A stretch of DNA of 61,534 nucleotides from a bacterium HR34. GTDB lineage: Bacteria; Patescibacteriota; Minisyncoccia; Minisyncoccales; HRBIN34. The stretch spans positions 1 to 61,534 of the forward strand of contig BEIK01000004.1 in NCBI GenBank assembly GCA_002923395.1, in the 5' to 3' direction. How positions within the stretch are numbered: the stretch's first letter is position 1; each line of letters opens with the position of its first letter. Made by a program: the position numbers and the translations under genes. The notes under the pieces are model-generated. The model was not told the origin of the DNA, made no database searches, and saw only the letters and a program-made list of their open reading frames with translations. This document shows, piece by piece, positions 11,419-52,959 of this stretch.

Positions 11419-11446
11419 CCAAACGTTCACGATCGTGAACGTTTGG
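11419..11446. repeat. 28-bp perfect palindrome, copy 1
   Basis: CCAAACGTTCACGATCGTGAACGTTTGG, flanked by tgct/ggca. Confidence 0.95.
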
Positions 11447-11518
11447 GGCAGGTGAAACTTCTAATTGTTTATAGGCATAGGTAATGGTATAATAAAAGTG
11501 AAAATGAATGAATAACAT

Positions 11519-12457
11519 ATGTACAAACGTCTAAAAATAATATCGTTAATAATATCAATAATTACAACATTTTTTTAATTACGTATTGGTTTTTGCAAGT
11601 AAATATTGCGAATAATAATAGCAATTATATAAATAATACTCAAGAAATAAGTGGAAAGAATGGTAGTGAGAAAAGTGAGGGTGATGAAAATTATAACAAT
11701 GAGGGAGAAAATAATGATTTTCAAGAGTTTGAGGAAGAATATGCTACTATAATCAAAAAATATAATATAAGTTTTGGTGAACGCATTAAGAAATATTTTA
11801 AATCATACTTTAAAAATACATATATCTCCCTTTCTTGAGGCTTTGGAGGAATCAAGTTACACGGATTGGAATACATATAATATTCCAGAAAATCCTCCAG
11901 AAGGATCCACTCTTCCAAAACTCTCTTTAAAAGTTCCTAAAGATTATATATTTAGTTATGGTGGCATTCAAGAACAAAGATATGGACCTTTCTACAGTAA
12001 ATATATTTTGTATTCTATATGCGAACCTAATTTCTGTAATGATAAATATTATTATTCCGAGAAATTATATATTAGATTTATATTAGAACTAAAAAGCGAC
12101 AATAATATTTGTGATAAAAATATCTATAAAACCCAAGAGTATTTTTCATTTACTAATAAAAATGGAGTAAGATTGTTTTCGGTAATTTTAGAGACAATAA
12201 AAGGCACTTCATATGATATTCTTCTTTGTAACAATGAAGGATATGAAGGTATTGTTCAAATAAATATGCCAGCGGTTGACGCAGGAGTAAGCCTAGATGT
12301 AGTAAAAACATATTTCAAAATACTAAAGGTACAATAGTTATACCGGTGCGCGCCTAAAAGTAAGAAATTAGACGCTGAAAAAATAAAAGAGTTTATAAAC
12401 GCAGTAGAAGAGGCGCAGGAAAACCTTGAAAAATTCTTTAATAACGATTCTCAATAA
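11519..12457 (+). pseudogene. Frameshifted gene for a membrane-anchored/secreted protein
   Basis: ATG 11519 encodes MYKRLKIISLIISIITTFF, then stops in a T7 run (11570-11576). One extra T joins ORF 11593-11838; removing one C at 11828-11830 joins ORF 11774-12337; the frame stays open past TAG 12337 to 12457. Confidence 0.6.
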
Positions 12458-12902
12458 AAATATATTATTGCGCTGACAATTATAATAGGGATGTAAAAAT
12501 AAATATGTAAGGTTTCATAAAGAGCCTGATGGTTTTTCTGTACATATGTTTTGGGAAAGACGGAGATATAAAGTTTGCCGGGATTTGCCCTGTTTTAAAA
12601 TACGAATTCAAAACTTTTGTGATTTCTGTTCTTCTTTTTTTATAGTTTTCTCTAAAAATTTTATTTGTTGAATCTAAAAACCAAAACAATACTATAACAG
12701 CCATTGCCAAAGTCATAAAGTTTTCTTCACCTGTTTAAAAACTCCAACCAATAAGTGCAACCCATAAAGTGATAGACCAACTTTTTATTTGATTTTCTAT
12801 TTTATCATATTTATCTATTTGAGACTGGACATTTGAAAACTCAAGTTTTATTAGGTTTAATTTTTCTTTTATTATTTCTTCACTATTTTTGTTATCTGCC
12901 AT
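12451..12902 (-). pseudogene. Small 3-TM protein gene with a premature stop and a homopolymer frameshift
   Basis: MADNKNSEE...KSWSITLWVALIGWSF*TGEENFMTLA...LFWFLDS; TAA at 12735-12737 is in frame; one extra T near 12495 restores a hydrophobic C-terminus ending at TGA 12451-12453. Confidence 0.65.
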
Positions 12903-12917
12903 ATTTTTATATTAAAT

Positions 12918-13412
12918 TTATTCTAAAACAAAAACAGTTGCTTTTTTGATACCAAAATTTATGGCTTCTTGCGTGGAAGGAAACCATATATCTACAAAAC
13001 TTTTGCCAAAGCGCTTATTCATCCTATCTTCAACAACAAAAACCTTCTCGCCGAAAAGCTCTGGAATTTTAATTTTTGTACCAAATGGCAGATAATTGTT
13101 GGCAACTATGCCGTCTCTTACTTTTTTGCCAGATGCTGTTGTGAATGGCGTGTTGTCTGTTTGATGCACGGTTGAAGAATAGCCTGTTATGAATCCTTCA
13201 AATGAATATTTTACATTCTTATCTACTAGAGGAAGTTCAACAGGTCCTTTAAGGTGGTTATCTTCTATTATAACATCTATTCCTTGATTGTATTTTATTG
13301 TTTCTGGTTTGTTATCCCTGTCTTGTACCATTCCAACACCAAAAATAGAGCCTTCTGTCAATAGGCCTATTGTTACGGTTAATAAAATTGTTATTAATTG
13401 AATTTTCCGCAT
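12918..13412 (-). CDS. 3D-domain (MltA-like double-psi barrel) exported protein
   Basis: N-terminal TM; YSST..QTD.TPF.TASG, LPFGTKI, VEDRM, VDIWF. Confidence 0.85.
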   Translation of the reverse strand: MRKIQLITILLTVTIGLLTEGSIFGVGMVQDRDNKPETIKYNQGIDVIIEDNHLKGPVELPLVDKNVKYSFEGFITGYSSTVHQTDNTPFTTASGKKVRDGIVANNYLPFGTKIKIPELFGEKVFVVEDRMNKRFGKSFVDIWFPSTQEAINFGIKKATVFVLE

Positions 13413-13495
13413 ATTAATGTAAAACTATATAATAACCACTAAAAGTCAATAAATTTTGGTAATTTTTTAAGTCTCCAATTTTTTTTCTTACTCTT

Positions 13496-14023
13496 ATGAT
13501 TTTAGCAACGCACATTATTTTTGTTTTGGTTTTAATTAAGGTTTTTAATGGCAATTTTTTGTTTGTTCTGCCGCTGGCCTTGCTGTCCCATTATTTTTTA
13601 GACGTTTTTTGCCATTGGGAGTATGATTTAAAATCAATGGAAAATAGGTATGAGAGGGAAAAACGCAGATTTTCAAAAAACATTTTGTTTGGTTTTGAGT
13701 TTTTATCAGATAAAGATTTTATGAAAGACTTGTTTAAGGTTGGTAGCGATTTTTTCTTTGGTTGGGGAATTTTCGTTTTTGTGGTGCACTATTTTTCTGA
13801 TTATAATTTGACTTTATCTGTTTTTTCTGCTTTTTTGGCTGTTTTGCCAGATTTGTTGCAGGCGTTATTTTATACATTTAAATTGAAATTTTTGCAGATT
13901 CACCAAAATTTTCATAATATTTTCCATTCAAGATGCGACGAGAAAACCCAAAGAAAATTAAGCCTTTTTGTCTTACAGATTGCCCTTAATGTTGTTTTTA
14001 TAATAATTTTTGTTAAAATATAA
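13496..14023 (+). CDS. Membrane protein, possible membrane-bound metal-dependent hydrolase
   Basis: Hydrophobic; TH near the start, SHYFLD..CH, LPD and H-rich C-terminal motifs. Confidence 0.55.
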   Translation: MILATHIIFVLVLIKVFNGNFLFVLPLALLSHYFLDVFCHWEYDLKSMENRYEREKRRFSKNILFGFEFLSDKDFMKDLFKVGSDFFFGWGIFVFVVHYFSDYNLTLSVFSAFLAVLPDLLQALFYTFKLKFLQIHQNFHNIFHSRCDEKTQRKLSLFVLQIALNVVFIIIFVKI

Positions 14024-14051
14024 CCTGATATTATTAAATAATTTAAAAAAC

Positions 14052-14639
14052 ATGGACGCAAAAAAAGAAAGGTGTTTGGTTTTAATAAAGCCAGATGGTG
14101 TTTTAAGAAGTTTAATAGGAGAGATAATAGCAAGATTTGAAAAGTGCGGATTAAAAGTTGTTGGGCTTGGTATGGTTTGGCCCAAAAGAGAGGATATAGA
14201 CAACCATTATCCGAAAGAAGAAGCATGGCTTAGAAAAATAGGCGAGAAAACTCTTAAAAATTATGAAAAATACGGCATAGATCCACAACAAGAACTTGGA
14301 ACCTCAGATACTCTTGAAATAGGAAAAATGGTAAGAGAATGGCTTTTAGATTATATGACAAAAGCGCCAATAGTAAAAGTTGCTTTGGAAGGGAACCATG
14401 CCGCTGACGTTGTTAGAAAAATAGTAGGTGATACTTTGCCATTAAATTCATCTCCAGGAACTTTGAGGGGAGATTTCTCAGTAGAAGATGCTGGCTTGGC
14501 AAACAGAGAAAAAAGAGCAATATATAATTTGATACATGCCTCAGAAAACAGTGAGGAAGCAGAAAGGGAAATTAAGGTTTGGTTTAAAGAAGAAGAGCTT
14601 TTTGATTACAAAAATTTATTAGATAAGCTTTATGAATAA
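14052..14639 (+). CDS. ndk: Nucleoside diphosphate kinase
   Basis: LIKPDGV.R, PGTLRGDF, N.IHAS; ATG 14052 preferred over the track start at 14010. Confidence 0.95.
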   Translation: MDAKKERCLVLIKPDGVLRSLIGEIIARFEKCGLKVVGLGMVWPKREDIDNHYPKEEAWLRKIGEKTLKNYEKYGIDPQQELGTSDTLEIGKMVREWLLDYMTKAPIVKVALEGNHAADVVRKIVGDTLPLNSSPGTLRGDFSVEDAGLANREKRAIYNLIHASENSEEAEREIKVWFKEEELFDYKNLLDKLYE

Positions 14640-15339
14640 GCAAATTGTTATTTCTTTGGGTGGAAGTTTGGTTTTTCCTTCTAATAAGGAAGAACCGGAT
14701 ATAAAGTTCGTTTCAGAGTTTGCCGAGTTTGTTAAAAAAGAGATGCTAAAGGTGTATGATAGAATTTTTATTGTAGTGGGTGGTGGAAAGCCGGCGAGAA
14801 TATATCAGCAATCTTTGAAAAAAGCCCTGCCTCATATTAGTGATAGAGAGTTAGATATAGTTGGAATTTATGCAACCTATGTTAACGCCTTCTTTGTGAA
14901 GGCGTTTTTTAGTGATTATGAATTTATTTATGAAGATATTATAAAAGGAAAAGATTATAGGAATTTGCCAGAACTAACTAATGAAAAAATTATTGTTGGC
15001 GCTGGAGGAGAACCGGGTTATTCTACTGACTTAGATTCTGTTTTGCTGTGCGAAAGATATGGTTGCAAAGAATTATTAAATTTATCTAATACAAAGGGTG
15101 TTTACGATAAAGACCCAAATAGATTTAGCGACGCACGATTTTACCCAAAAATTTCTTGGGAAGAATATTTAGGTATTATTCCAAATGAGTGGAAGCCTGG
15201 TTTGAGTACCCCTTTTGATCCGAAAGCATCAAAATTGGCGCAGAAGTTGAGAATAAAAGTTTATATAGTTAAAGGGGATTTAATTAACCTTGAAAAAATT
15301 ACGAAAGAAGAAAACTTTGAAGGAACTATTATAAGTTGA
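14632..15339 (+). CDS. pyrH: UMP kinase (archaeal-like)
   Basis: SLGGS, VVGGG..AR.Y, PGYSTD, GVYDKDP, PFDP.A. Confidence 0.92.
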   Translation: MNKQIVISLGGSLVFPSNKEEPDIKFVSEFAEFVKKEMLKVYDRIFIVVGGGKPARIYQQSLKKALPHISDRELDIVGIYATYVNAFFVKAFFSDYEFIYEDIIKGKDYRNLPELTNEKIIVGAGGEPGYSTDLDSVLLCERYGCKELLNLSNTKGVYDKDPNRFSDARFYPKISWEEYLGIIPNEWKPGLSTPFDPKASKLAQKLRIKVYIVKGDLINLEKITKEENFEGTIIS

Positions 15340-15405
15340 AATAAATTTATGGAAAAAATAAAAAATATTTCATAGTATTAAGATTAATAGAACTTAACAA
15401 AAAAA

Positions 15406-16200
15406 ATGTTTGAGAAGATCAGAAATTTTTTTGGAGAAATTTCAAAAGAGAGAATAAGTAAAGATAAAGAGATAGAAAAACTTATTTCTATTGGAAAGAT
15501 AGAAGAGGCAATAAATTTTACCATAGAAAACAGAAGCTTTAAGGATTTTTATGATATTATAGATAAGATAATAAATAGAGACAAAAAGATTATAGAATTT
15601 ATAAATGATAATTATGGTTTTAAAAAACTTCAAGAAATTCAAGCAAGTAGAAATGTTCGCAATTCAATCTTTAGATCGTTAGATGAACTTATAAATTATA
15701 TAAAAGAAAATCAAAAACTGATAATAGGAAATATTGATAACAAAAATATTTATGATGAGAAATTGAAATTTGTTATTAGTGTGATAGAAAATCTGTGGTA
15801 CAATTTTGATTCATTCAAAATATACAAGTTTTTAGCTAAAAAGATTATCCCAGAAAAGGAACTCTCTCGTTTATATGAAGATAGGGATTATGAGTGGATA
15901 AAAGTATTTTTAACATTATTTAATTATTTAAATGGATATGAATTACAATCTTCAAATAAAACATTGGGGTATGGAAATGAGGATAAAGATAAAATATCAA
16001 TATATATTCTAGAAAAATTAAGTTCAGAAATAGAAAATAGGTTGGACGACAACATTAATATAGCTATTAGCAGGGCCTATGAATTGGACGAACAAAAGCT
16101 ATTCAATGAAAGGCAATATAAAATAAAGCCTTTAGCACCAGTTAATGCTTTAAAATATTTTATCGAAGAATTTAAAAAAAGTGGGATTTTAAAAATATAA
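15406..16200 (+). CDS. Hypothetical protein
   Basis: 264-aa ORF, helical and E/K-rich, no motif recognised. Confidence 0.7.
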   Translation: MFEKIRNFFGEISKERISKDKEIEKLISIGKIEEAINFTIENRSFKDFYDIIDKIINRDKKIIEFINDNYGFKKLQEIQASRNVRNSIFRSLDELINYIKENQKLIIGNIDNKNIYDEKLKFVISVIENLWYNFDSFKIYKFLAKKIIPEKELSRLYEDRDYEWIKVFLTLFNYLNGYELQSSNKTLGYGNEDKDKISIYILEKLSSEIENRLDDNINIAISRAYELDEQKLFNERQYKIKPLAPVNALKYFIEEFKKSGILKI

Positions 16201-16250
16201 AAAAGTGACTAAGTAGAGGTTGTTCGATCTATAAAATTTATTTAAAGTTG

Positions 16251-16280
16251 TTGCTTAAAGTGTGTAAAAATTGGTAAAAT
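16251..16280 (+). promoter_or_regulatory. Sigma70-type promoter of the 6S-like RNA
   Basis: TTGCTT (16251) - 18 bp - TAAAAT (16275) with an upstream TG; predicted +1 near 16287-16288. Confidence 0.6.
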
Positions 16281-16287
16281 ATAATAT

Positions 16288-16415
16288 GCCCCGGTGTAGA
16301 AGTTCTGGACCATACAGGATTTTTAGGGATGCCTTATACCTTATCGCCTCCCATGGTGGATAAGGTGCGGCAACCCACCTGTAACTGTTTTCCAAGAACT
16401 TTCTTATGCCGGGGC
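16288..16415 (+). ncRNA. ssrS: Compact 6S (SsrS)-like RNA
   Basis: Long irregular hairpin: GCCCCGG/CCGGGGC, AGTTCT/AGAACT, TACAGG/CCTGTA, GGGATGCC/GGCAACCC, ACCTTATC/GATAAGGT; GGCAACCCACCTG resembles the Firmicutes 6S motif; followed by TTTT. Confidence 0.65.
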
Positions 16416-16421
16416 TTTTGG

Positions 16422-17357
16422 TTAAAAGATAGTTTTTTGTGTTTTTGTTAGAATAAACAAAATAATGATTGCAAATAATGTAATGTGCGAGAATACATTT
16501 TCTTTGAAAATAAGTAAAGACATTGAAAGCACAAGCAAGGTAGGAATTGAAATTGCCTTTCTTGTGTGAGGAATTATTAAAAGCAACCCTATTAAAGTTT
16601 CTATTATTGCGCTTGTTAGTATCCAAAGTTCTGTGGTCATTGGTATGTAATTTTGAAGATTGTACTGTTCAACCACAAGCGCTGATAGGTGAGGTTTGAA
16701 TATTTTTTCATAAAAAGCAAGGAACATTAAAGAAAAACCTATTCCAAAAGCAAGAACGTGTTCCTTTATAATTTTTGTTTTAATAACATCGCAAGCGAGC
16801 AGTAAATATACGAAAATTGAAAGCACTTCTGCGTTTCCAAAAATATATATGTTTTTTGAGATAATTATAGATGCTACGTATCCAATAATTCCTAAAATTG
16901 AGCCAGCAAAAGTTATATAGTTTTTCTTTAGGATAAAGCCCAATATTATTAAAATTGCAATTATATATTGGAGTGTAATTAAAATTTCTATGGTATGAAC
17001 AAAAGGAGATATAAATTCTTTTGAAATTGCGAGATTTATTAAGTATATTAATACAGCAACGCTAACTATGTAAGTGTTATATTTAGAGAATGCGTGGAGT
17101 TTGTCGGATATTTTTTGGTAGGTTTTTGTTTTTGAAATATAAAGAGCAAGAAGATATCCTATTGTAATTGAAACAAAAATAATAATTATTAAAAAAATTC
17201 CGTTAGAAGAAAAAGCGTTCCAAATTTTTTCTAGCCACAAGTTTTTCAATAATATGTCGTTTGCGCTTGTATTTACCACATATCCAACATGGGAAAATGA
17301 AGAAAAGGGGAATAGCAAAAAAGGCAAAAGTAATAAATTAACAATTTTCCATTTCAT
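16422..17357 (-). CDS. Polytopic membrane protein (DoxX-like)
   Basis: Signal-like N-terminus, about 8 TM; F...GIG.S......EK, IETLIGLLLI. Confidence 0.6.
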   Translation of the reverse strand: MKWKIVNLLLLPFLLFPFSSFSHVGYVVNTSANDILLKNLWLEKIWNAFSSNGIFLIIIIFVSITIGYLLALYISKTKTYQKISDKLHAFSKYNTYIVSVAVLIYLINLAISKEFISPFVHTIEILITLQYIIAILIILGFILKKNYITFAGSILGIIGYVASIIISKNIYIFGNAEVLSIFVYLLLACDVIKTKIIKEHVLAFGIGFSLMFLAFYEKIFKPHLSALVVEQYNLQNYIPMTTELWILTSAIIETLIGLLLIIPHTRKAISIPTLLVLSMSLLIFKENVFSHITLFAIIILFILTKTQKTIF

Positions 17358-17595
17358 AAATATAATACCCTTTATTTTTTATCTTTTCTTCTATGTCTTT
17401 GGAGGCTTTTTCTATGTGGCAAAATTTACATTCATTTGACGACAATTCTTGCCCTTCTTCACCTTTAGTTTTTAGGTATTCATTTCCATATGCGATAACT
17501 TTTTCATAAGGAGTATTTTTCTCTACTATTATATCAAAGTGCATTATCCTGCCGTCTTTTCTTTTTACATAAGTATCGTAAACTGCTATTTCCAT
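17338..17595 (-). CDS. DUF2024-family protein
   Basis: VYDTYV.RKDG.IMHFDI, ECKFCH.E.A. Confidence 0.8.
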   Translation of the reverse strand: MEIAVYDTYVKRKDGRIMHFDIIVEKNTPYEKVIAYGNEYLKTKGEEGQELSSNECKFCHIEKASKDIEEKIKNKGYYIYEMENC

Positions 17596-17671
17596 ATTTT
17601 TGTTGATTTAATTTAAATTTATAATTAATATTTAATATTACAAATTTAATATTACAAAAAATTACAAAAAT

Positions 17672-18949
17672 ATGGAAGGGGAGAATAGTAGGTTTTACGA
17701 ATTACCATCAAAAGAAAGGGTTTCTGCGAAAAATGTAGAGGAGAAAATTAGGAATATAGAAGATGAGAGAGAATTGAGTAGGCTTTATAACGCTATTTCT
17801 TATTTTTTGCGTTATGGAATAGAATCTTTTTCAAGGGCTGTTGATTTATCTATTGTGGGGATTGAAAAACGGAAAGAATTTGAAAATTATAGAAGTTTAG
17901 ATGAATATTGTGCATCTTTTGGGTTAGATGATAAGCAAATTACTCGTTTGAAAAATGATTTAGCAGAAGAAGCAAAATTTATAATACCTCAATTTAAAAA
18001 TTTAGCCTATTTATATTTAAAAGGGGATTTAGAGGATTATTTAAAAAAAATTTTAAGTGTGTTATCACCTTATAAAAGTGAAAATGATGAAAAAATAGAG
18101 AAAAGGAGAATAGATGAGATTATATATTTAATAGAAAATTTTATTGAAGAAACGTTGCAAGATAAAAGTATAGATGAATTTGTAGGAAAGATCGATGATT
18201 TAGAATTTTATAAAAATGAAATCATCTTTTTGATATATACTACTTTTTTACGCATAAAAAGAGGTGAATTTGTATCTACCATCGCCGAAGATATGAGAAA
18301 TAAATTAATACAATTATCTATAGAAATAGTATCTTCAGAAAATCTACCGAATTATTTTTATACAAATAATTATTTTAATCTAAACAAAAAAGAAGTTAAA
18401 AGTTTTAAAAATTTTGTTTTGGAAACTGGAGTTATATCAGAAGATGAATGGGATGTTTTTTTAGAATTTTTTAATACCATATCTTTAGAGTATTGCAAGT
18501 ATATATATGAAAAGATTATATATAAAATTACCAAAAATTTGATTAATAAAGATATAGCATCCGCAATTTATTCATTCGATGAGAGTAAGATAGAAGAGTT
18601 GAAAGATGAGTTTGAAAAAATTTTTAATATTAATTTGAGAATTGAAAAATTTAATAAAAAAATTCCCGACAAGAAAGTAGACAATAGAGATGTTGTTTTA
18701 TTAAAACTAATATTGGAGCGTATTGTTGATGTTCTTATAATAAATTCTGTAAAATCTATAGTGGTGAAATATTTCCCAGAGGCGATAAATAAAGAATATG
18801 AAATTATACAAAATATAGAGGGAATACTTGCATCGCTTGAGCTTCCAAAAGATAAAGAACAAAATAAAAACGCATTTGAATATGGGTTATCTATATTAAA
18901 GGAAATTCAAAAACTTTACTTTGAAAATTATAATGAAGAAAAGTCATAA
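17672..18949 (+). CDS. Hypothetical protein
   Basis: 425-aa helical E/K-rich ORF. Confidence 0.7.
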   Translation: MEGENSRFYELPSKERVSAKNVEEKIRNIEDERELSRLYNAISYFLRYGIESFSRAVDLSIVGIEKRKEFENYRSLDEYCASFGLDDKQITRLKNDLAEEAKFIIPQFKNLAYLYLKGDLEDYLKKILSVLSPYKSENDEKIEKRRIDEIIYLIENFIEETLQDKSIDEFVGKIDDLEFYKNEIIFLIYTTFLRIKRGEFVSTIAEDMRNKLIQLSIEIVSSENLPNYFYTNNYFNLNKKEVKSFKNFVLETGVISEDEWDVFLEFFNTISLEYCKYIYEKIIYKITKNLINKDIASAIYSFDESKIEELKDEFEKIFNINLRIEKFNKKIPDKKVDNRDVVLLKLILERIVDVLIINSVKSIVVKYFPEAINKEYEIIQNIEGILASLELPKDKEQNKNAFEYGLSILKEIQKLYFENYNEEKS

Positions 18950-19866
18950 TATGGATTTTGGGGCTTCATAAAGCAAGCACTAGTTTTTTCAACCTTACTT
19001 AAGCGTGGGCCTTGTTTTATTTTTTCTAAGAGTTGTTCTAATTCTTTAATTTTCCCTTGCGCTACAACTTCAACAGAGCCGTTTTCCAAATTTTTTGCGT
19101 ATCCTTTTATGCCGTAAAAATCAGCCCATTTTTTTGTAAAAGCACGAAATCCAACACCTTGCACTCTTCCATATACATTAACCTTCATTTCTATTATACT
19201 TTCTTTAATATCTTCTATTTTTAAACTTCTTTCGATTGTAAAATTACCAACTGCAGTTCTTGTGAGTTCTTTTAAGTATCCGCCTGTTTTTAGTTTTTTA
19301 CCAATATCTCTCGCTAAACTTCTTATATAAGTTCCAGCAGAACACCAAACTTTTATTTTTAATATCGGAAAGTTATACTCTAAAATTTCTATTTTCTTTA
19401 TTTCAACTATCCTTTCTTTTTCTTTTAGCATTTTTTCAAGTTCTTCTTTGTTCTTTATTTTTCTCGCTAATTCATAAAGACGCTTGCCTTTTATTTTTAG
19501 CGCCGAAAATATTGGAGGGATTTGCCTTATTTTGCCTGTAAAATTATCTTGCAAAATCTCTTCTATTTCTTTTGAATATGGCTGTTTTTCAAAATTAACT
19601 TTTTCTTTTTTGCCTTCAATATCGTCTGTATCTGAAAACTCTCCAAGTTTGATAGTTGCCAGGTATTCTTTATCAGCATTTTTTAATATATTTTCTAAAA
19701 GTTTTGTGTATTGTCTTCCGACGCCAACAATCAGCAGACCATCTGCAAAAGGATCAAGCGTGCCACCATGCCCGACCTTTTCTTTTGGTAACATTCCTTT
19801 GATAAAATCTATTGCTTTTGCGCTTGATATGCCTTTTGGTTTATATAGCAAAATTATTCCCTCCAT
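18928..19866 (-). CDS. truB: tRNA pseudouridine-55 synthase fused to a C-terminal acylphosphatase
   Basis: KVGHGGTLDPFADG, PP.FSALKI.GKRLY, SAGTYIRSLARDIG, then GRVQGVGFR...G.A.N..NGSVE. Confidence 0.92.
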   Translation of the reverse strand: MEGIILLYKPKGISSAKAIDFIKGMLPKEKVGHGGTLDPFADGLLIVGVGRQYTKLLENILKNADKEYLATIKLGEFSDTDDIEGKKEKVNFEKQPYSKEIEEILQDNFTGKIRQIPPIFSALKIKGKRLYELARKIKNKEELEKMLKEKERIVEIKKIEILEYNFPILKIKVWCSAGTYIRSLARDIGKKLKTGGYLKELTRTAVGNFTIERSLKIEDIKESIIEMKVNVYGRVQGVGFRAFTKKWADFYGIKGYAKNLENGSVEVVAQGKIKELEQLLEKIKQGPRLSKVEKTSACFMKPQNPYYDFSSL

Positions 19867-19869
19867 ATT

Positions 19870-36857: not shown

Positions 36858-36899
36858 GGCCATTCCAAACGTTCACGATCGTGAACGTTTGGAATGGCC
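36858..36899. repeat. Palindrome copy 2, extended to a perfect 42 bp
   Basis: GGCCATT + 28-bp core (36865-36892) + AATGGCC. Confidence 0.95.
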
Positions 36900-44746: not shown

Positions 44747-44854
44747 GGTCAAGGGTAGACTTCTGCCAAGTTTGGTCAAGGGCTGCCCTCGACCCAGTTG
44801 TACCGAGGTCTGACCCTGGTATAACTGTACCGAGGTCTGACCCTGGTATCGATT
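44747..44854. repeat. Four units at 27-bp spacing, including an exact 24-bp direct repeat
   Basis: GGTCAAGGG at 44747 and 44774; TGTACCGAGGTCTGACCCTGGTAT at 44799-44822 and 44826-44849. Confidence 0.85.
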
Positions 44855-44894
44855 AAAGTTTAATAATTCAAAAAAATTGAAAAACCGATTTGTT

Positions 44895-44922
44895 CCAAAT
44901 GTTCACGATCGTCAACATTTGG
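44895..44922. repeat. Palindrome copy 3 (variant)
   Basis: CCAAATGTTCACGATCGTCAACATTTGG: one compensatory pair plus one mismatch. Confidence 0.9.
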
Positions 44923-44992
44923 GGCGAGCTCTCTATTATCTTATCTTTCTTTTTTTGGATCTCCTCTTTTCTTTATCTCTCGTCCACTTCAT

Positions 44993-45018
44993 CCTGCTCC
45001 GGCGTAAGCCGGAGCAGG
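44993..45018. other. GC-rich hairpin, 11-bp stem, GTAA loop
   Basis: CCTGCTCCGGC-GTAA-GCCGGAGCAGG. Confidence 0.85.
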
Positions 45019-45122
45019 GGGAAGTTAGAAAAAATAGATGGCATTGGTCTTATGTTTTATATATAACTTTGCATTATTTGGGGATTTTAATTATAATAAA
45101 ATATTCTTAACTTAGTTTATTT

Positions 45123-46511
45123 ATGCCAGATCAAATAAAAAAAGAGCTTCCGGATAAACTTCCACCTCAAGATATAGAGGCAGAAAAATCTTTATTGGGT
45201 TGCCTTTTAATAGACAAAAACGCCATTTTAAAAGTGGTGGATTTTTTGCTTCCAAGAGATTTTTACAAACCCAACCATCAAATTATTTATCAGGCTATGC
45301 AAGAACTTTTTGCTAAAAATGAACCAATAGACATTCTTTCCGTATCAAGCAAACTTAAAGAAAAAGATCAACTTGATAAAATCGGAGGTTATGCTTATTT
45401 AACAGAACTTGTTAATTCAGTGCCAACAGCAGCGCACACTTTAACTTATGCCAAGATAGTTCAAAAGAAAAGAATTTTAAGAGATTTAATTGAAACGTCT
45501 TATGATATAGGTTTAATGGGTTATTCTGAAGCAGAGGATGTTGATAAGCTTTTAGATGAAGCAGAAAAAAGAATTTTTATGATAGCTCAAAGAAGTTTAA
45601 CTCAGCAATTCTCCCATATAAAACCTGTTTTAGAAGAAGCGTTTGAAAGAATAGATAGATTGTCAAAAGAAGAGGGAAGGGGAATAAGAGGGGTGCCAAC
45701 TGGATTTTATCAATTAGATAATCTTATATCTGGACTACAAAGGTCTGATCTAATTTTATTGGCAGCACGTCCCTCAATAGGTAAGAGCGCTCTGGCTTTA
45801 GATATAGCAAGGCATGTTGCAACAAAAGAAAATTTGCCAGTTGGAATATTTTCTTTAGAAATGTCAAAAGATCAAATAATAGATAGAATGATAGCTGCTG
45901 AAGCAATGGTTGACCTGTGGAGATTGAGAACAGGAAAATTACAAGAAGAAGATTTTCAAAAAATACAAAAAGCATTTGGAGTGTTATCGGAGGCGCCAAT
46001 TTATATTTATGACTCTCCTTTATCCACCGTTTTGCAAATAAGAGCAATGGCAAGAAGGTTACAGGCAGAGAAAGGGCTTGGATTGATAATAATTGATTAC
46101 CTACAGCTTATAGAATCAGAAAATAAAAATTTAAGCCCTGTGCAGCAAGTAAGCGAAATTTCAAGATCATTGAAAGGTTTGGCACGAGAATTAAATATTC
46201 CTGTTTTGGCAGTGTCGCAGTTATCAAGGGCTGTTGAGCAGAGAGTTCCGCAAATTCCAAGGTTGGCAGATTTGAGAGAAAGCGGTAGTTTAGAGCAGGA
46301 TGCGGATGTTGTGCTTTTTATATATAGGGAAGACAGATACAGGGAAAACACAGATAGAAAAAACATTGCTGACATAATTGTAGCAAAACACAGAAACGGA
46401 CCTGTTGGTAAAGTTGAGCTTTATTTTGAAGAAAGAATGGCAACATTTTTAAACATTGAAAGAAATTTTGATGAAAACGCGCCATTAGAGCAGGAATCAG
46501 AAAATTTTTAA
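45123..46511 (+). CDS. dnaB: Replicative DNA helicase
   Basis: PPQ..EAE, AARPSIGKS, IIDYLQL, LRESGSLEQDAD, KHRNGP; no intein. Confidence 0.98.
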   Translation: MPDQIKKELPDKLPPQDIEAEKSLLGCLLIDKNAILKVVDFLLPRDFYKPNHQIIYQAMQELFAKNEPIDILSVSSKLKEKDQLDKIGGYAYLTELVNSVPTAAHTLTYAKIVQKKRILRDLIETSYDIGLMGYSEAEDVDKLLDEAEKRIFMIAQRSLTQQFSHIKPVLEEAFERIDRLSKEEGRGIRGVPTGFYQLDNLISGLQRSDLILLAARPSIGKSALALDIARHVATKENLPVGIFSLEMSKDQIIDRMIAAEAMVDLWRLRTGKLQEEDFQKIQKAFGVLSEAPIYIYDSPLSTVLQIRAMARRLQAEKGLGLIIIDYLQLIESENKNLSPVQQVSEISRSLKGLARELNIPVLAVSQLSRAVEQRVPQIPRLADLRESGSLEQDADVVLFIYREDRYRENTDRKNIADIIVAKHRNGPVGKVELYFEERMATFLNIERNFDENAPLEQESENF

Positions 46512-46524
46512 GTTAATTTAAAAT

Positions 46525-47145
46525 ATGAACTCAAAGATTATACAAGATTTAATATCTGAATTTGCAAAGTTTCCAACAATTGGCCCAAAAACAGCAGCCC
46601 GCTTTGTTTTTTACTTGATAAAACAGAAAAAAGAAGATGTAGATAAACTTGTTGATTTAATAATGAAATTAAAAAATTCTATTAGGCTTTGCAGATTTTG
46701 TTTTGCTCCTTTTGAAAAAGAAGGTGATAATGAGTTTTGTAATATATGCTTAAGCGATAAAAGGAATAAAAAAATATTATGTATAGTTGAGAGAGAGCAG
46801 GATATGGAGGCAATAGAGAATACAGGTGAGTATAAGGGTGTGTATTTTATTTTGGGAGGCGATATGAATTTGTTGGCAAAAGATGGTGAAGAAAGACTAA
46901 AAAGAGAGAAAGATTTAGTTGATAGATTAAAAAATCCTGAAAAATACGGCTTTGAAAAATTTTCTGAAGTTATAATAGCTTTAAATCCTACGGTTGAAGG
47001 AGAGGTTACGAGCGATTATTTGAAAAACTTAATTTTAAATTTAGGGTATAAAGTAACGCAGATAGCAAAAGGGATTCCAAAAGGCGGCGAGTTAGAGTAT
47101 GCAGATAAAGACACAATAAAAGAAGCATTAAACAGAAGGCAATAA
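46525..47145 (+). CDS. recR: Recombination mediator RecR
   Basis: P.IGPKTA.R, C4 zinc finger, EGE.T..Y, GGELEYAD. Confidence 0.95.
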   Translation: MNSKIIQDLISEFAKFPTIGPKTAARFVFYLIKQKKEDVDKLVDLIMKLKNSIRLCRFCFAPFEKEGDNEFCNICLSDKRNKKILCIVEREQDMEAIENTGEYKGVYFILGGDMNLLAKDGEERLKREKDLVDRLKNPEKYGFEKFSEVIIALNPTVEGEVTSDYLKNLILNLGYKVTQIAKGIPKGGELEYADKDTIKEALNRRQ

Positions 47146-47146
47146 A

Positions 47147-48520
47147 ATGAAAATTTACAACACCCAAACAAAAACAAAAGAAGAATTCAAGCCATTGGAT
47201 TATCCTAATGTAAAAATTTTTGTTTGCGGCCCAACGGTTTATGACAAACCTCACATTGGGCATGCGAGGGTTTATGTTGTTTTTGACTCTTTTGTTAAAT
47301 TTTTAAAACATCTCGGTTACAAAGTTTTTTATATTCAAAACATAACAGATATTGACGACAAAATAATTAATAAAGCCAACAAAGAGGGCGTTAGTTTTAA
47401 AGAGATAGCAATAAGATATGAAAAAGAGTATTTTGAAGCAGTAAAAAAACTTAGAATCGACAGTGTTGATAAGTATTGCAGAGCAACAGAACATATGCAG
47501 GAAATAATTTCGCAAGTGAAACGTCTTTTAGAAAAAGGTTTTGCTTATGAGACAGATGATGGAATTTATTTTGATATTTCAAAATTTAAGGAATACGGAA
47601 AATTGTCTGGAAGGAAGGAAGTTAAAGAAGAGGATGCTGTTTCAAGAATAGATGAATCTGTTAAAAAAAGAAACAAAGGAGACTTTGCTTTATGGAAATT
47701 TTCAAAAGAAGGTGAGCCTTTTTGGGAGAGCGAGTTTGGAAAAGGCAGACCTGGTTGGCATATAGAAGATACAGCAATAACAGAAAAATACTTTGGACCT
47801 CAGTATGATATTCACGGAGGAGGAATTGATTTAATTTTCCCGCACCATGAGGCAGAGTTAACGCAAATGGAGGCCTTGTCTGGAAAAAGTCCTTTTGTTA
47901 AGTATTGGATGCATCTTGGTTTTTTGAAAATTAGAGGAGAGAAAATGTCGAAAAGTTTGGGCAATTTTATAACTATTGAAGATTTCATTGAAAAGCATGG
48001 CGCCAGAGTCTTAAGATATTTTATGTTAAAAAGCCATTATAGAAGCCCTATTGATTTTACAGAAGATTTGGTTTTTCAGGCAAAAAAAGAAATTGAAAAG
48101 TTGGACGATTTTAGGGCAAGATTAGAAAAAGTTGATGGTAATGTTGGTGGGGTAAGTTTAAATGTAAAAGAGGTAGAGAATAATTTTGTGCAATCTTTAG
48201 AAGACGATTTCAACACACCAAAAGCATTTGGGGTTTTGTTTGATTTTGTAAATGAAGTAAATTCTTTAATGGATAAAGGGTTATTATCAAAGGAATTATC
48301 TGATAAAGTTTTAGATTTTCTTAATAATATAGATACTTTTTTAGGGTTTATTTATTGGGAAGAAGAAATACCACAAGAAATTATTGAGTTGGTGCAAAAG
48401 AGAGAAGAATTAAGAAGGAAAGGCGAGTGGGGCGAGGCTGATAAAATAAGAGAGGAAATACAAAGAAGAGGCTACACGATAAAAGACACAGAAAAAGGCC
48501 CAATAGTAAGGAAAAATTAA
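47147..48520 (+). CDS. cysS: Cysteine-tRNA ligase
   Basis: CGPTVY..PHIGHAR, PGWHIED, FPHHE, KMSKS. Confidence 0.96.
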   Translation: MKIYNTQTKTKEEFKPLDYPNVKIFVCGPTVYDKPHIGHARVYVVFDSFVKFLKHLGYKVFYIQNITDIDDKIINKANKEGVSFKEIAIRYEKEYFEAVKKLRIDSVDKYCRATEHMQEIISQVKRLLEKGFAYETDDGIYFDISKFKEYGKLSGRKEVKEEDAVSRIDESVKKRNKGDFALWKFSKEGEPFWESEFGKGRPGWHIEDTAITEKYFGPQYDIHGGGIDLIFPHHEAELTQMEALSGKSPFVKYWMHLGFLKIRGEKMSKSLGNFITIEDFIEKHGARVLRYFMLKSHYRSPIDFTEDLVFQAKKEIEKLDDFRARLEKVDGNVGGVSLNVKEVENNFVQSLEDDFNTPKAFGVLFDFVNEVNSLMDKGLLSKELSDKVLDFLNNIDTFLGFIYWEEEIPQEIIELVQKREELRRKGEWGEADKIREEIQRRGYTIKDTEKGPIVRKN

Positions 48521-48535
48521 ATTTATTTATTAATT

Positions 48536-49657
48536 ATGGTTATATCGATATATACGAAATACAGACCTCAAAAGTTTTCAGATTTAATAGGGCAAGAAAT
48601 AGTGGCTAACACTTTAAGGAATACTGTTAAAATGGGTTTGGTTTCTCACGCTTATTTATTTGCAGGGCCTCGGGGTTCTGGTAAAACAAGTACAGCGAGG
48701 ATTCTTGCTAAAGCAGTAAACTGCGAAAACCCAAAAGATGGAGAACCTTGCAACAAGTGTAAGTTTTGCGAAGAAATAAAAAGTGGCAAAGCAATAGATA
48801 TTATCGAAATAGATGCTGCTTCAAATAGAGGAATAGAAGAAATAAGAGAGTTGAAAGAAAACGCAAGATATGCTCCGTCTTTTTTAAAGTATAAAGTTTT
48901 TATAATAGACGAGTCCCACCAACTTACAAAGGAAGCAGTAAACGCCCTACTTAAAATTGTTGAAGAGCCGCCAAGCCATGTTATTTTTATTTTTGCTACA
49001 ACAGACCCACAAAAAATGATTGAAACAATTATTTCAAGATGCCAAAGATTTGATTTTAAAAAACTATCAATAAGTGACATCGTCAAAAAATTAGAATACA
49101 TTCTTAAAAATGAAAATATTCCTTATGAAAAAGATGCTTTAGAGTATATTGCTGTTTTTGCGCAAGGAGCGATGAGAGACGCCGAAGTTTTATTAGAGCA
49201 AATTATTTATTCTTTGCACGAGGGCGAAAAAATAACAAAAGATTTAGTTTTAAATATATTAGGTGGCGTAGACCCGCTTTTTATAAAAGAACTTTTCAGG
49301 ACAATAGTTAATAAAAAGTTTCCAAAAGCAATAGAAATTTTAAATTCTTTGGTTACTAAAGGTTATTCTGCAGAAGATATTGCAAAAAACTTAATAAACT
49401 TTTTAAGAGTTGGGTTGATGTTAAAAGTAGATGGAAGTTTATCGTTAGAAGATATTCCAATATCTGTTACCAGCGATGATATAGAATTCATAAAAAGCGA
49501 GATAAAAAATGTAAACTTGAGATATTTATATAATGTTTTAGATTTGTTTTTGGAAGCGTTGCCAAAAATTAAATACGCGCCAGTTCAGCAACTTCCCTTA
49601 GAACTTGCCATTTTAAGTATTTTTGATAAAGAAGGAGAGAACAGTGGCAAGCAATAA
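48536..49657 (+). CDS. dnaX: DNA polymerase III subunit gamma/tau (short)
   Basis: KYRP..F, GPRGSGKT, PC..C..C, EIDAASN, SRCQRF. Confidence 0.95.
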   Translation: MVISIYTKYRPQKFSDLIGQEIVANTLRNTVKMGLVSHAYLFAGPRGSGKTSTARILAKAVNCENPKDGEPCNKCKFCEEIKSGKAIDIIEIDAASNRGIEEIRELKENARYAPSFLKYKVFIIDESHQLTKEAVNALLKIVEEPPSHVIFIFATTDPQKMIETIISRCQRFDFKKLSISDIVKKLEYILKNENIPYEKDALEYIAVFAQGAMRDAEVLLEQIIYSLHEGEKITKDLVLNILGGVDPLFIKELFRTIVNKKFPKAIEILNSLVTKGYSAEDIAKNLINFLRVGLMLKVDGSLSLEDIPISVTSDDIEFIKSEIKNVNLRYLYNVLDLFLEALPKIKYAPVQQLPLELAILSIFDKEGENSGKQ

Positions 49658-49711
49658 TTGAATAATTTTAATTTTTTGGTAAATTATAAGTATATCGCCA
49701 ATTTTTTTTAT

Positions 49712-49782
49712 TGCGGGGTCGTCTAATGGTAGGACAGCGGCCTTTGGAGCCGTTAATCCTGGTTCGAGTCCAGGCCCCGCAG
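49712..49782 (+). tRNA. tRNA-Gln(TTG)
   Basis: TGCGGGG/CCCCGCA acceptor stem, GCGGC-CTTTGGA-GCCGT anticodon arm, GGTTCGAGTCC T-loop. Confidence 0.95.
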
Positions 49783-49840
49783 CAAAGATTTTGCTTTTTT
49801 AAGTAGTTTCCTTATTTTATAAAAAACGGCTTATAAAATA

Positions 49841-50627
49841 ATTACAAAACTAATAGAATTTAAAAATAAAAGAGGCGATATTTTAAGAGGCTTTTTGGTG
49901 AGTGGGAAAAAGAGTAGGAGAGAGCATGGTGTTATTTGTTTGCATGGTTTTGAAAGGACTTCTATAACAGAGAAGAAGTTTAAAACTATTTCAGATAGAT
50001 TGGCTTGCAATAATATTTCTTCATTCAGATTTGATTATGCTGGCTGCGGGATTTCAGACGGTGATTTTAGATATACCACAATTAACTCAATGAAAAATGA
50101 TTTTGAAAGAGCAGTAGAGTGTTCCAAAAAATTTCAAAGGTCAAGTATATTTAGGTTATTGCGCATAGTGTATCGGCATGCGTTGTTGCAAGTTGTGATA
50201 TCAGCGTTTTAATAAAATTGTGCTTATAGCGCCAGCCTTAAATCAAAAAGAACTTTTGAGATATTGATTTGTTAAATCTCAAAATAGCGATGTTGATATT
50301 AATTGGGATAATTATAAAAAGTTTGTAGTGGAAAAAGAATTTGAAAAGTTTTGCAAAATAAAACAAAGAATGACAAAATTAAATTATATAAACAACGATT
50401 ATTTTTTAGAAAATAAAGACAAAGGTTATTCTTTTAGTTTCAAAGATAAAGATTTTGAAAATAAAATTTTGCATATTCATGGAAATGCAGATGGTATTGT
50501 TAGCTTGAAAGTTTAAATATAGGTTTTAAAAATAAAATTATTGTAAAGAGCGGAGACCATGATCTTGAAAAGCCAAGATATGCTAAAACAGTGGATTTTG
50601 AAATGTACGCGGTTTGTAATAAAATAG
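49841..50627 (+). pseudogene. Alpha/beta hydrolase pseudogene
   Basis: LHGF and RFDYAGCG.SDGDF, then AHSVS, IAPA, HGNAD and GDHD spread over different frames with internal stops. Confidence 0.8.
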
Positions 50628-50648
50628 AAGATTAAAAAAGTTTCAGAA

Positions 50649-50855
50649 ATGTTTTTAAAAGTGAAAATTTTTCCTTCGTCAAAGAGAGCAGAGGTTATTA
50701 AAAAGGATAATTTTTGAAAGGTTAAAGTTTAATCTAAGCCAGAGAGGAGAGAGGCGAATAGAGAATTGGTGAAGGTTTTGTCTCAGTATTTTTGCATTCC
50801 CGAAGGTAAAATAAAAATTGTAAAGGGATTGAGAAGCAGAAATAAAATAGTCTAA
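50649..50855 (+). pseudogene. YggU/DUF167 (UPF0235)-like pseudogene
   Basis: MFLKVKIFPSSKRAEVIKKDNF*KVKV*SKPERREANRELVKVLSQYF...IVKGLRSRNKIV: two in-frame stops. Confidence 0.75.
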
Positions 50856-50879
50856 ATTAAATATTAAAAAATTTAATTT

Positions 50880-51470
50880 ATGGCTAAGAAAAATAATTTT
50901 GAAAATATAGTTGATTTTTTCTTTGAGCTCGGTACTCTAAGAAAAGTAATAAGGGCACACCAGCAGGCGTTGTTTGGAAACGACGCTTCTGACAATATAG
51001 CGTCTCATACATTTAGAGTGTGTTTTATAGGATATTTTTTGGCGCAGATAGAAAAAGCAGATGCTTTTAAAGTTGTGATGATGTGTTTAGTGCATGATAT
51101 TCCAGAAATAAGGACAGGCGATCAAAATAATATTCATAAAAAATATGTGAAAGCATTTGAAGATGAGGTTATAAATGATCAATTAAACGGACTTCCTTTT
51201 TCAGAATTTCTTAAAAATTTGTTCTTTGAATATGAAGAAAGAAAAACAAAAGAAGCAAAAATAGCAAAAGACGCTGATATTTTAGATGAAATTTTTCTGT
51301 TAAAAGAGTATTCTGCTACTGGCAACAAAGAAGCCGAAAGATGGCTTAAAAATCATTCTCATAGTAAATTTTTAAACACGAAAACAGCAAAAGAGATTTA
51401 TAAGGTTATTATAAAAAAGAATATCTCTGATTGGTGGAAAACCTTCGCAACCTTCAACAAGAGAAGGTGA
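50880..51470 (+). CDS. HD-domain phosphohydrolase (YfbR/HDDC2-like)
   Basis: R.H, ASHTFR, HDIPE.RTGD, KDAD..D. Confidence 0.88.
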   Translation: MAKKNNFENIVDFFFELGTLRKVIRAHQQALFGNDASDNIASHTFRVCFIGYFLAQIEKADAFKVVMMCLVHDIPEIRTGDQNNIHKKYVKAFEDEVINDQLNGLPFSEFLKNLFFEYEERKTKEAKIAKDADILDEIFLLKEYSATGNKEAERWLKNHSHSKFLNTKTAKEIYKVIIKKNISDWWKTFATFNKRR

Positions 51471-51473
51471 TAA

Positions 51474-52643
51474 TTACTTTTTAAACTTTTTCTCAGCTTC
51501 TTTTCTTATTTTTTCTTTAAGTTGCGTTAGATCTCTTTTATAATTGCGCGTAGTGATTTTGGCGAATATTTCATCTCCTGAGAAGAACCTTATAGAGCAG
51601 GACATTTCAAAAAACTGAGCCCTTCCAGCAGCGTTTCTGTCTTTTACTATTCTTAAAAATATATCTTTTACAGAATTCATTTTGTTTAGTGATTTTGCAA
51701 TTGCTTGGAGTTTGTTAAAAACGAAATCAATATCTTGTTCTGGTATTTCGGCTTGATTTCTTATATCTATTTTAATAACTTCTTCTGGCTTTAATTGAGT
51801 TAAAGCTTCTATTACATTTCTAATTGAAATTATCCCTGTTGGTTTTTCTTGTTCGTCCGTTAGAACTATGCTTTTGTAATCTGATGTTAAAAGTCTTTCT
51901 ATTATTTTTTCTATTGGCTCTTTTTCGTGAATATGGAGAGGAGTTTTTGCTATAGCACTTATTGGAAATTCTAATCTTCCTGTTAGTTCAAAGCTAAACA
52001 TAGAACTTTTAGCATTCCTAGCGTTGGGTGATTTTGATGTACCGCCTGTTTTTACTCTTTGTTTTGTTGTTGGTTTTGTTAAGTATGGGAATATGTCTTT
52101 TCTTGTTACAATTCCTTTTAATGTTCCGTATTTGTTAACAAGCAGAACTCTTGAAGCGTTTTCATTTTTCATAATTTGATAAACTTTTTTCGCAGTGGTG
52201 GTAGTTTGCACAATAACAGGTTTCTGGATTTTTATATATTTGCCTATAACACCAATTAAGTCGCTGTCTAAAATAAACTTCATAATACCATCTGCTGTTA
52301 TTAGATAATTTGCATTTTCTCCTTCAAAAATAGGGAAAGATATTGTTCTATGGGCTAACATGAGTTCTGCAACTTTTGTTAGAAGAGTATTTGGAGTGAT
52401 GTTTGGAGGCTTTATCATTGCTGATTTTACTTGCGCTGTGAAAGGCAGCCTTGATTTAAATAGCGCCAGATATGGTGATACTATCCCGATTATGTTTTTA
52501 TTTTCATCTAAAACTAAAACCGATTCATGCGAACTTGTTGTTCTTGATAGAGCCCTGTCTAAACTATCTTCAGGATAGCACGTTGGAGTTTTTTTAGTTA
52601 TCGGCTCCAAATAATTTTTGATATCTCTTATTTTTATGTCCAT
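51474..52643 (-). CDS. Four CBS domains + C-terminal HPF/RaiA-like domain
   Basis: CBS motifs (GIVS, GIVTRKDI, GIISIRNV); the last ~100 aa show a beta-alpha-beta-beta-beta-alpha pattern ending in a basic helix. Confidence 0.7.
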   Translation of the reverse strand: MDIKIRDIKNYLEPITKKTPTCYPEDSLDRALSRTTSSHESVLVLDENKNIIGIVSPYLALFKSRLPFTAQVKSAMIKPPNITPNTLLTKVAELMLAHRTISFPIFEGENANYLITADGIMKFILDSDLIGVIGKYIKIQKPVIVQTTTTAKKVYQIMKNENASRVLLVNKYGTLKGIVTRKDIFPYLTKPTTKQRVKTGGTSKSPNARNAKSSMFSFELTGRLEFPISAIAKTPLHIHEKEPIEKIIERLLTSDYKSIVLTDEQEKPTGIISIRNVIEALTQLKPEEVIKIDIRNQAEIPEQDIDFVFNKLQAIAKSLNKMNSVKDIFLRIVKDRNAAGRAQFFEMSCSIRFFSGDEIFAKITTRNYKRDLTQLKEKIRKEAEKKFKK

Positions 52644-52931
52644 ATTTTTGATTGATTAAATTAGATTGTAATTTGGTTTTAATAATAGATATTTTATCAA
52701 ATAAATTCAATTTAGCAAAATTAAATTACAAGTTGTGTTAAAAGCAGTATTTTAGCAAATATTTGAGTAGGACAGCCCTACCGACGTCATGTCGGCTAGG
52801 GCAGGTTCCTGACAATATATAAGTAACAAGCCAATAATACAGAAGTCTGCCTTCTGTACAAACTTTTTTAAGTTTAAAAATTGATATTTAATAAAATAAT
52901 CAAGATTAATTGCTCAAACATAGAGCCCGTT

Positions 52932-52959
52932 CCAAACGTTCACGATCGTGAACGTTTGG
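52932..52959. repeat. 28-bp perfect palindrome, copy 4
   Basis: Identical core followed by GGCAATAT. Confidence 0.95.

Follow-up and report, generated by a model that had tools for sequence, protein, structure and literature searches.

What are the near-identical palindromes that recur between genes of a patescibacterial contig, and what keeps their two arms matched? The question is raised by the bacterium HR34 (Patescibacteriota, order Minisyncoccales; GenBank assembly GCA_002923395.1), whose contig BEIK01000004.1 (C4) was analysed at its full length of 61,534 nt (the window; 10.6% of the assembly) and carries four 28-bp sites of this kind. The assembly comprises 579 kb in 22 contigs at 30% GC, the shortest retained contig being 4.1 kb. 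In the species collection, its closest relatives are related to it no further than at the level of the order, and their genomes of 0.3-1.5 Mb are typical of the candidate phyla radiation (CPR)/Patescibacteria. These bacteria are not cultivable alone, and to our knowledge almost nothing is known of their gene regulation and genome dynamics. We describe the CGATCG-centred palindromes of HR34 (hereafter, family A) as a genome-wide family with maintained symmetry, whose core in relatives stands beside genes for mini-PaaX, a small winged-helix and Cas2-fold protein (PF20803, PaaX_M). By sequence and architecture, family A very probably belongs to a class of palindromes associated with these genes. 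That its members function as binding sites, that is, as DNA dyads of the mini-PaaX class recognised by a protein, is the reading we favour on balance. Neither PaaX-like proteins nor palindromes of this type were described for Patescibacteria in the literature searched.

A nine-copy family with maintained symmetry

The exact 28-mer CCAAACGTTCACGATCGTGAACGTTTGG forms the core of copies 1, 2 and 4 (Table 1) and was matched in 0 of 100 shuffles, in agreement with the three identical copies listed in an earlier note on this DNA. The variant copy 3, CCAAATGTTCACGATCGTCAACATTTGG, differs from it at three positions. Two of the changes, C6T and G23A, are compensatory, as that note had seen; the third, G19C, had been overlooked and breaks the symmetry by facing C10 in a C.C mismatch. 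The flank extensions read earlier at copies 1 and 2 stand as described, and the flanks of copy 3 pair through T.G only. Each of the four is intergenic. Divergent genes flank copies 1, 3 and 4, namely Rrf2 (then SufC, SufB) and a 187-aa open reading frame (ORF), MiaB and DnaB, and a CBS protein and pyrophosphatase; the divergent placement of three copies, too, is as first reported. Pfam confirmed the neighbours Rrf2, SufC, SufB with an intein, PheT, GyrB, MiaB, DnaB, the CBS protein and pyrophosphatase.

Counted over the whole assembly, the family comes to nine copies, not four, and every one is intergenic. Four of the nine are on C4 (binomial p ~0.01). Alignment of the arms gave a consensus unit of ~36 bp, TGCC-CCAAACGTTCACGATCGTGAACGTTTGG-GGCA. 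The right flank GGGGC is common to copies 1, 3, 4 and the C3:51021 copy, and the asymmetric flank YGYT...GGGGC to copies 1, 3 and 4; no sequence is common to the loci beyond ~45 bp. The hexamer CGATCG was observed 11 times in HR34 vs 13 expected from dinucleotides, and restriction avoidance of it was rejected, since with the palindromes set aside its ratio falls in the range seen for other palindromic hexamers. A weak match to a D12-class adenine methyltransferase (E 3.7e-5), which bears on methylation of the central GATC, was found in a 444-aa ORF (C11:6762-6980).

None of the copies lies on a promoter-like site. Copy 1 lies upstream of rrf2 (minus strand), at a distance of 112 nt, and upstream, by ~30 nt, of a -35/-10-like pair (TTGTTT-17-TATAAT with TG, ~11475-11505) that was spotted by eye and not reported by the promoter scan. 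Copy 2 lies 97 nt past the pheT stop, is followed by TTACTTTTTT, and precedes a 126-aa ORF and gyrB, whose best promoter-like site is ~100 nt beyond the palindrome. Copy 3, between miaB (minus) and dnaB (plus), is at least 100 nt from the best promoter-like site of either. In general, the best promoter-like sites are 30-170 nt from the window palindromes, and across the genome the promoter-like site or stable-RNA gene nearest to a family-A copy is 30-430 nt off, and none is overlapped. No flank motif was detected at a fixed distance from the palindromes, nor was a conserved promoter element found.

These neighbourhoods recall two known kinds of site, the ParB-bound centromere (parS), a 16-bp sequence with the consensus TGTTNCACGTGAAACA that is clustered near the origin, and the operator of an Rrf2 regulator. 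The half-site TTCAC/GTGAA resembles parS, one copy is upstream of parA and others are near gyrB and dnaB, and copy 1 has rrf2 as its neighbour. Family A, however, has four additional central bases, GATC, inserted between the half-sites, and canonical parS sites exist elsewhere in the genome, four of them on C8, so that identity with parS was rejected; a single copy in nine is near rrf2, and Rrf2, the partner suggested in the earlier note, has no support. We regard a parS-like or Rrf2 identity as extremely improbable. The C8 sites fall within 1.9 kb (C8:12276-14135; three exact TGTTCCACGTGGAACA, one with a single mismatch) and are likely an origin-proximal centromere cluster.

The family was also followed in a second strain, using Logan contigs of the hot-spring metagenome run X1. 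The X1 population is ~1% divergent from HR34 and carries copies 1-4 in an independent assembly, so these copies are not assembly artefacts, a doubt that the earlier note had left standing. All four are present in both strains, and no presence/absence polymorphism of the palindromes was seen. At copy 1, the dominant X1 haplotype (43x) reads TTGCT-core-AGCAA, a perfect 38-bp palindrome, and joins window position 12390 directly via GTGA; the segment in between has a coverage of just 6-8x in X1. Copy 1 borders this strain-variable accessory segment, which begins 10 nt to its right. Where HR34 has the T.G mismatch of copy 1, the dominant X1 strain has T-A, thus compensation is visible within the species.

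A palindrome at the edge of variable DNA could be a Xer/dif-like site on which a lone tyrosine recombinase acts and which delimits exchangeable cassettes. Read directly, the 28-bp core has the exact 11-6-11 geometry, HR34 has one tyrosine recombinase gene (C3:46448-46972), the accessory segment next to copy 1 varies between strains, and in relatives identical sites bracket genes, as in pdif modules. Members of the class are, however, 26-60 bp long, with symmetry conserved far past the 11-bp arms and the 28 bp of the core. A palindrome borders the indel on one side only, and the indel starts 10 nt beyond it; no palindrome adjoins or is otherwise linked to the recombinase gene, and as many as nine recombination-proficient sites would be hazardous in a 0.58-Mb chromosome. 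A dif site is expected once, at the terminus, and the nine copies disagree with this. This explanation is very unlikely.

Mini-PaaX genes beside the core in relatives

When public genomes and metagenomes were scanned for an exact 22-mer, a single other organism, G061, was matched, and an exact-pattern scan of viral contigs gave no family-A match. RluD, GrpE and CysS of G061 and HR34 are only 33-48% identical, yet 26 of the 28 palindrome bases are identical. A 16-mer scan of 400 order-level genomes yielded matches in nine other genomes, and 0 with the reversed control. In these nine the core (GTTCACGATCGTGAAC in relatives) is kept, and the outer arms are genome-specific yet self-complementary. 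Matches in miaA (G093/G213) and in the GC-rich G066 are probably coding coincidences; TTCACGATCGTGAAC encodes FTIVN. A palindrome with the family-A core lies 68-150 nt upstream of ctpA (S41 peptidase) both in G339 (L023) and in HR34 (C3:51011-51046), a weak hint that ctpA could be a common target gene across two families of the order.

In several relatives the core is found at the ends of a mini-PaaX gene. In G235, two identical 42-bp palindromes with the exact 16-bp core flank a 184-aa PaaX_M gene, 17 nt past its stop and 20 nt ahead of its start. In G061, a homologous gene upstream of grpE-dnaK is bracketed by two copies matching 23 and 21 of the 26-bp core, and in G232 the sole copy abuts a mini-PaaX homologue. 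Overall, ~5 of 13 non-self sites adjoin a gene of this family, which has 0-8 members per ~600 genes. The location in G061 raised the idea of a heat-shock operator (CIRCE, controlling inverted repeat of chaperone expression), which was rejected: the hrcA-grpE-hsp20-dnaK genes of HR34 have no palindrome, and the family-A neighbours there are Rrf2, PheT, GyrB, MiaB, DnaB and pyrophosphatase. The earlier suggestion of a cruciform or protein site, or of an operator, thus holds in kind, as the core brackets PaaX_M genes in relatives.

A survey of 61 genomes (HR34 and 60 order-level relatives) detected PF20803 genes in 23, with up to eight per genome. Loop-less perfect palindromes of 26-60 bp, private to the locus, stand at one or both ends of ~19 of 29 mini-PaaX loci, the downstream one 0-50 nt past the stop codon. 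Their centre is CGATCG in most cases (13 of the 19 palindrome-bearing loci of relatives), as in the loop-less 28-42-bp dyads of family A; others have CCATGG, CTATAG or ACGTACGT. As judged from these sequences, the class would comprise long, loop-less, mostly CGATCG-centred perfect palindromes that occur throughout Patescibacteria and typically bracket a mini-PaaX gene.

HR34 has a single mini-PaaX gene, on contig C9 (Table 1). In its protein a winged helix precedes PaaX_M, which in PaaX is the Cas2-like middle domain (Pfam: PaaX_M 4.5e-20, CRISPR_Cas2 1.4e-5), and the Cas2 signature residues FDIP and QKSVF are retained. The AlphaFold model (mean predicted local distance difference test score 76; >90 in the Cas2-like half) has Escherichia coli PaaX (8a39) as its best structural match, and Cas2 structures next. 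PaaX is the repressor of phenylacetate catabolism and has palindromic operators (E. coli W, PDB 8a39). By analogy, a dimeric regulator on a dyad would be the simplest mechanism for mini-PaaX. Unlike PaaX, mini-PaaX has ~200 aa and lacks the C-terminal PaaX domain; its palindromes have no loop, span 26-60 bp, mostly centre on CGATCG, are specific to their own gene copy and flank it on both sides, and family A has neither an adjacent mini-PaaX gene nor a ligand pathway nearby.

The C9 gene is bracketed by a palindrome of its own, TTTACAAATAAAATGCTATAGCATTTTATTTGTAAA, 112-115 nt off on each side (hereafter, family B, the CTATAG-centred palindromes around this gene). Because the only mini-PaaX gene is bracketed by this different palindrome, the nine family-A copies are orphans. 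No second mini-PaaX gene or remnant was found in HR34 (tblastn, hidden Markov model), and the 126-aa ORF beside copy 2, considered as a truncated partner, has no similarity to the mini-PaaX profile. The absence of a cognate gene that the earlier note reported for the window therefore extends to the whole assembly. Several histories are conceivable. The C9 protein may cross-recognise both families; a CAAAY block lies 9-14 bp from the axis in both, and many members of the class have similar A-rich blocks. Alternatively, assembly and binning may have lost a cognate cassette in which two repeats enclose ~0.7 kb. Contigs demonstrably break at family-A palindromes; Logan contigs break inside the palindrome and do not join overlaps of 30 nt or less, so that such a cassette is not recoverable from them. 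Family-A sites may also have outlived their partner.

Symmetry kept in DNA, and the choice of reading

One G061 copy lies inside an RluD-type gene. The same peptide, ITNVHDRExLLY, occurs in 14 of the 122 closest homologues retrieved, and the palindrome is at the same codons in 11 orthologues. Their outer arms, ATAACAAA/TTTGTTAT, and the CGATCG centre are invariant, and the inner positions vary, changing in pairs. In the alignment 85.9% of the cells are paired, five pairs have changed on both sides, and the covariation score was reached in 0 of 500 shuffles. In P0009, a perfect 34-bp palindrome is kept through three double substitutions that alter amino acids. Such compensatory changes, read from the orthologous sequences, show a long-term constraint on DNA dyad symmetry. 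A recent in-frame insertion into RluD, like the Rickettsia palindromic element, was rejected since the segment is conserved in 11 orthologues. With compensatory changes within HR34, between strains and across the 11 RluD orthologues, the selection or conversion for symmetry that the earlier note proposed is supported.

The RluD palindrome is located at L006 3567-3592 (orthologues L057-L060 and L064-L069; at least 11 species), ~250 nt upstream of rplS. The arms of this clade read TTGTTATAYT outward on both strands, resembling an extended -10 box, and rplS is the next gene. The palindrome may be an internal, regulated promoter for L19. Family A of HR34 is without this motif (GTTTGGGGCA).

Symmetry could also be kept for the sake of an RNA hairpin, with the palindromes serving as intrinsic terminators or transcript 3'-end stabilisers, roles that some repetitive extragenic palindromic (REP) elements have. 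No significant G.U preference is seen among the mismatches. On the coding strand of the RluD set there are 9 G.U vs 17 A.C, and the lack of a G.U preference argues for a duplex-DNA dyad or symmetric binding over an mRNA hairpin. In family A, mismatches within 18 bp include 14 G.T vs 6 A.C; the difference is not significant, and the surplus need not reflect selection on an RNA strand because C-to-T changes in the left arm of several copies explain it. Copy 2, with its 19-pair stem after pheT and a following T-run, is the sole copy with a convincing terminator shape; the C3:38056, C3:51021 and C5:19654 copies are between co-directional genes, and the position just past mini-PaaX stop codons in relatives would suit a terminator as well. 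Four or five copies, however, are between divergent genes with no upstream transcript to terminate, and clear HR34 terminators have A-run/T-run flanks that family A lacks. The terminator scan flagged copy 2, flagged copy 4 weakly (no gene upstream), and did not flag copies 1 and 3. Rfam 15 covariance models at gathering score matched four tRNAs in the window and nothing else. A search for RNA sequencing runs with this organism returned none. An RNA role for the family as a whole seems quite unlikely.

In the binding-site reading, a mini-PaaX dimer would be held together by the Cas2-like domain, its two winged helices sitting on one arm each about the conserved centre. Once bound, the dyad could function in promoter-bearing spacers as an operator, a roadblock or a boundary element, and copy 2 might serve as the pheT terminator in addition. 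Mini-PaaX presumably binds the palindromes of its class, and a regulatory or boundary role of the family-A sites is the function that we infer.

Several observations speak against this reading. No family-A copy in HR34 adjoins a mini-PaaX gene, the lone gene having a different palindrome. The G235 and G061 proteins, both with the family-A core at their genes, are in distant clades of the protein tree, so the inner arm sequence does not simply track the protein. That the copies lie apart from promoter-like sites, with no shared motif at a constant spacing, is unusual for the operator of a simple repressor, and at copy 2 and C3:51021 the symmetry reaches locus-specific outer arms, beyond the need of a dimeric winged helix. 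Finally, three copies agree at all 28 bp, and an asymmetric flank recurs in copies 1, 3 and 4; this looks like the copying of a unit and not like sites that evolved independently. Identical copies, shared flanks, symmetric locus-specific arms and a patchy, multicopy partner keep REP-like copying or arm conversion alive.

In its original form, a REP element or miniature inverted-repeat transposable element (MITE) mobilised by an HUH enzyme (RAYT/IS200), as the earlier note inferred, this idea finds no support. No Y1/HUH transposase (RAYT, PF01797) was matched at E<=10 in the whole 579-kb assembly, in which the controls were matched. Tested for REP features, family A consists of nine single copies, perfect loop-less dyads without a GTAG-type head and without doublets; tested for MITE features, the palindrome is the whole element and the flanks have no common target-site duplication. 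A REP/REPIN-like selfish repeat could nonetheless be copied to new intergenic sites by another enzyme acting on a hairpin or cruciform. This enzyme would not be HUH; a candidate is the Cas2-fold protein encoded in a palindrome-gene-palindrome cassette (an analogue of the REPtron), the solo copies being its products or footprints. A gene between two repeats in relatives mirrors the RAYT gene flanked by REPs, and dispersed intergenic palindromes with a species-specific consensus, some of them solo, are what REP/REPIN-RAYT systems of Proteobacteria have. The three identical copies, the asymmetric flank common to several, and self-complementary, locus-specific outer arms, as expected from fold-back copying, are in line with this, as are the patchy, multicopy PF20803 genes, the retained FDIP and QKSVF residues, and the strain-variable 934-bp segment that begins 10 nt from copy 1. 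Against it, HR34 has no HUH gene, nine copies contrast with the hundreds of REP systems, doublets, target duplications, a loop and the GTAG head are all missing, the mini-PaaX fold is different, and no filled-vs-empty palindrome polymorphism was seen between the two strains at copies 1-4. The RluD-internal copy, fixed at one site across 11 species, indicates function over parasitism. We consider selfish copying possible though improbable.

In a bolder version, the winged-helix/Cas2-fold proteins would act on hairpins or cruciforms extruded at the dyad centre, keep the arms symmetric and seed solo copies. The arms would be matched by fold-back or conversion repair and extended into local flanks, and the nine orphan copies would be dispersed products bordering strain-variable DNA. 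Protein and repeat would then form a REPtron-like, perhaps CRISPR-repeat-like system with a new enzyme class. CRISPR also has 28-40-bp palindromic repeats with a Cas2-fold protein encoded beside them. Here, however, there is no array, spacer, Cas1 or leader, and the Cas2 fold comes joined to a winged helix; the resemblance goes no further than structure. We know of no nuclease activity in PaaX-type Cas2-like domains, and this enzymatic version is a rather speculative one, less probable again than selfish copying in general.

Other repeats, and what the family means

The remaining family-A copies, family B and other features are listed in Table 1.

Table 1 Palindromes and associated features of HR34 (window = contig C4)
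Feature	Position	Strand	Sequence or structure	Context
Family-A copy 1	window 11415..11450, core 11419-11446		unit TGCT-core-GGCA, one T.G mismatch	
Family-A copy 2	window 36858..36899, core 36865-36892		perfect 42-bp palindrome	
Family-A copy 3 (variant)	window 44895..44922		T6-A23 compensatory pair, C10.C19 mismatch	
Family-A copy 4	window 52929..52962, core 52932-52959			between CBS-domain gene (minus) and ppa (plus)
Family-A copy	C1:57252		one-base bulge	150 nt upstream of three-tRNA cluster, 370 nt upstream of parA
Family-A copy	C3:22705			427 nt upstream of 23S-5S operon
Family-A copy	C3:38056		centre shorter by one base	between ftsQ-like gene and murD
Family-A copy	C3:51021		ctgccccattGTTCACGATCGTGGACaatggggcag; different outer arms, self-complementary all the same	between ABC pseudogene and ctpA
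Family-A copy	C5:19654		CGATTG centre	downstream of 16S-tRNA unit, upstream of idi
Mini-PaaX gene	C9:22406-23029		~200 aa	only such gene in HR34
Family-B copies	C9:22248-22291 and C9:23143-23174		centre GCTATAGC (CTATAG)	bracket mini-PaaX gene
Third family-B copy	window 53037..53062		AAATAAAGTGCTATAGCATTTTATTT	77 nt right of copy 4
Strain-variable segment	window 11457..12389	+	promoter-like site and 187-aa ORF without family match	
GGTCAGGGTCAGACCTCGGTACA repeat family	window 44747-44850; C2:860-936, C3:1-77, C16:4787-4836, C17:6611-6687, C7:1242			
GC-rich palindromes	C10:4447-10412		GGCAGGCGGGGC...GCCCCGCCTGCC and AGCCCCGCCCGC...GCGGGCGGGGCT	

The ~27-nt unit, GGTCAGGGTCAGACCTCGGTACA, of a second, GC-rich repeat family is arranged in direct and in inverted orientation, giving palindromes of 48-50 bp. 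In the window this family lies 45 nt left of copy 3; it also occupies two contig ends and is thus a probable cause of assembly breaks. The long spacers of copies 3 and 4 contain further isolated GC-rich hairpins (catcctgctccggcgtaagccggagcaggggg, ggacagccctaccgacgtcatgtcggctagggc and tacagaagtctgccttctgta, window 44985-45016 and 52770-52858), as though structured inserts gathered there. Upstream of ppa there are two copies of a 20-nt tandem repeat, aaaattggtttaatcggttt (window 53187-53228), of which the X1 strain has one unit fewer. Four further palindromes of 27-30 bp and 73-85% GC occur on a single 14-kb contig, C10, of this 30% GC genome. In SufB (window 7698-10178, minus), Pfam places Intein_splicing and LAGLIDADG_3 inside SUFBD, so the intein includes a homing-endonuclease domain of the LAGLIDADG type.

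For HR34, the results show that sites can outnumber a partner gene and be uncoupled from it, and that the symmetry of family A is kept on the time scale of strains, with one copy bordering strain-variable DNA. A relative of the family-A site survived inside a coding gene across species via compensatory changes. If the Cas2-fold domain were catalytic, a new kind of repeat-propagating element would be at hand. Widespread small DNA-binding proteins with private, recognisable palindromes would give a first map of regulators and their sites in CPR/Patescibacteria.

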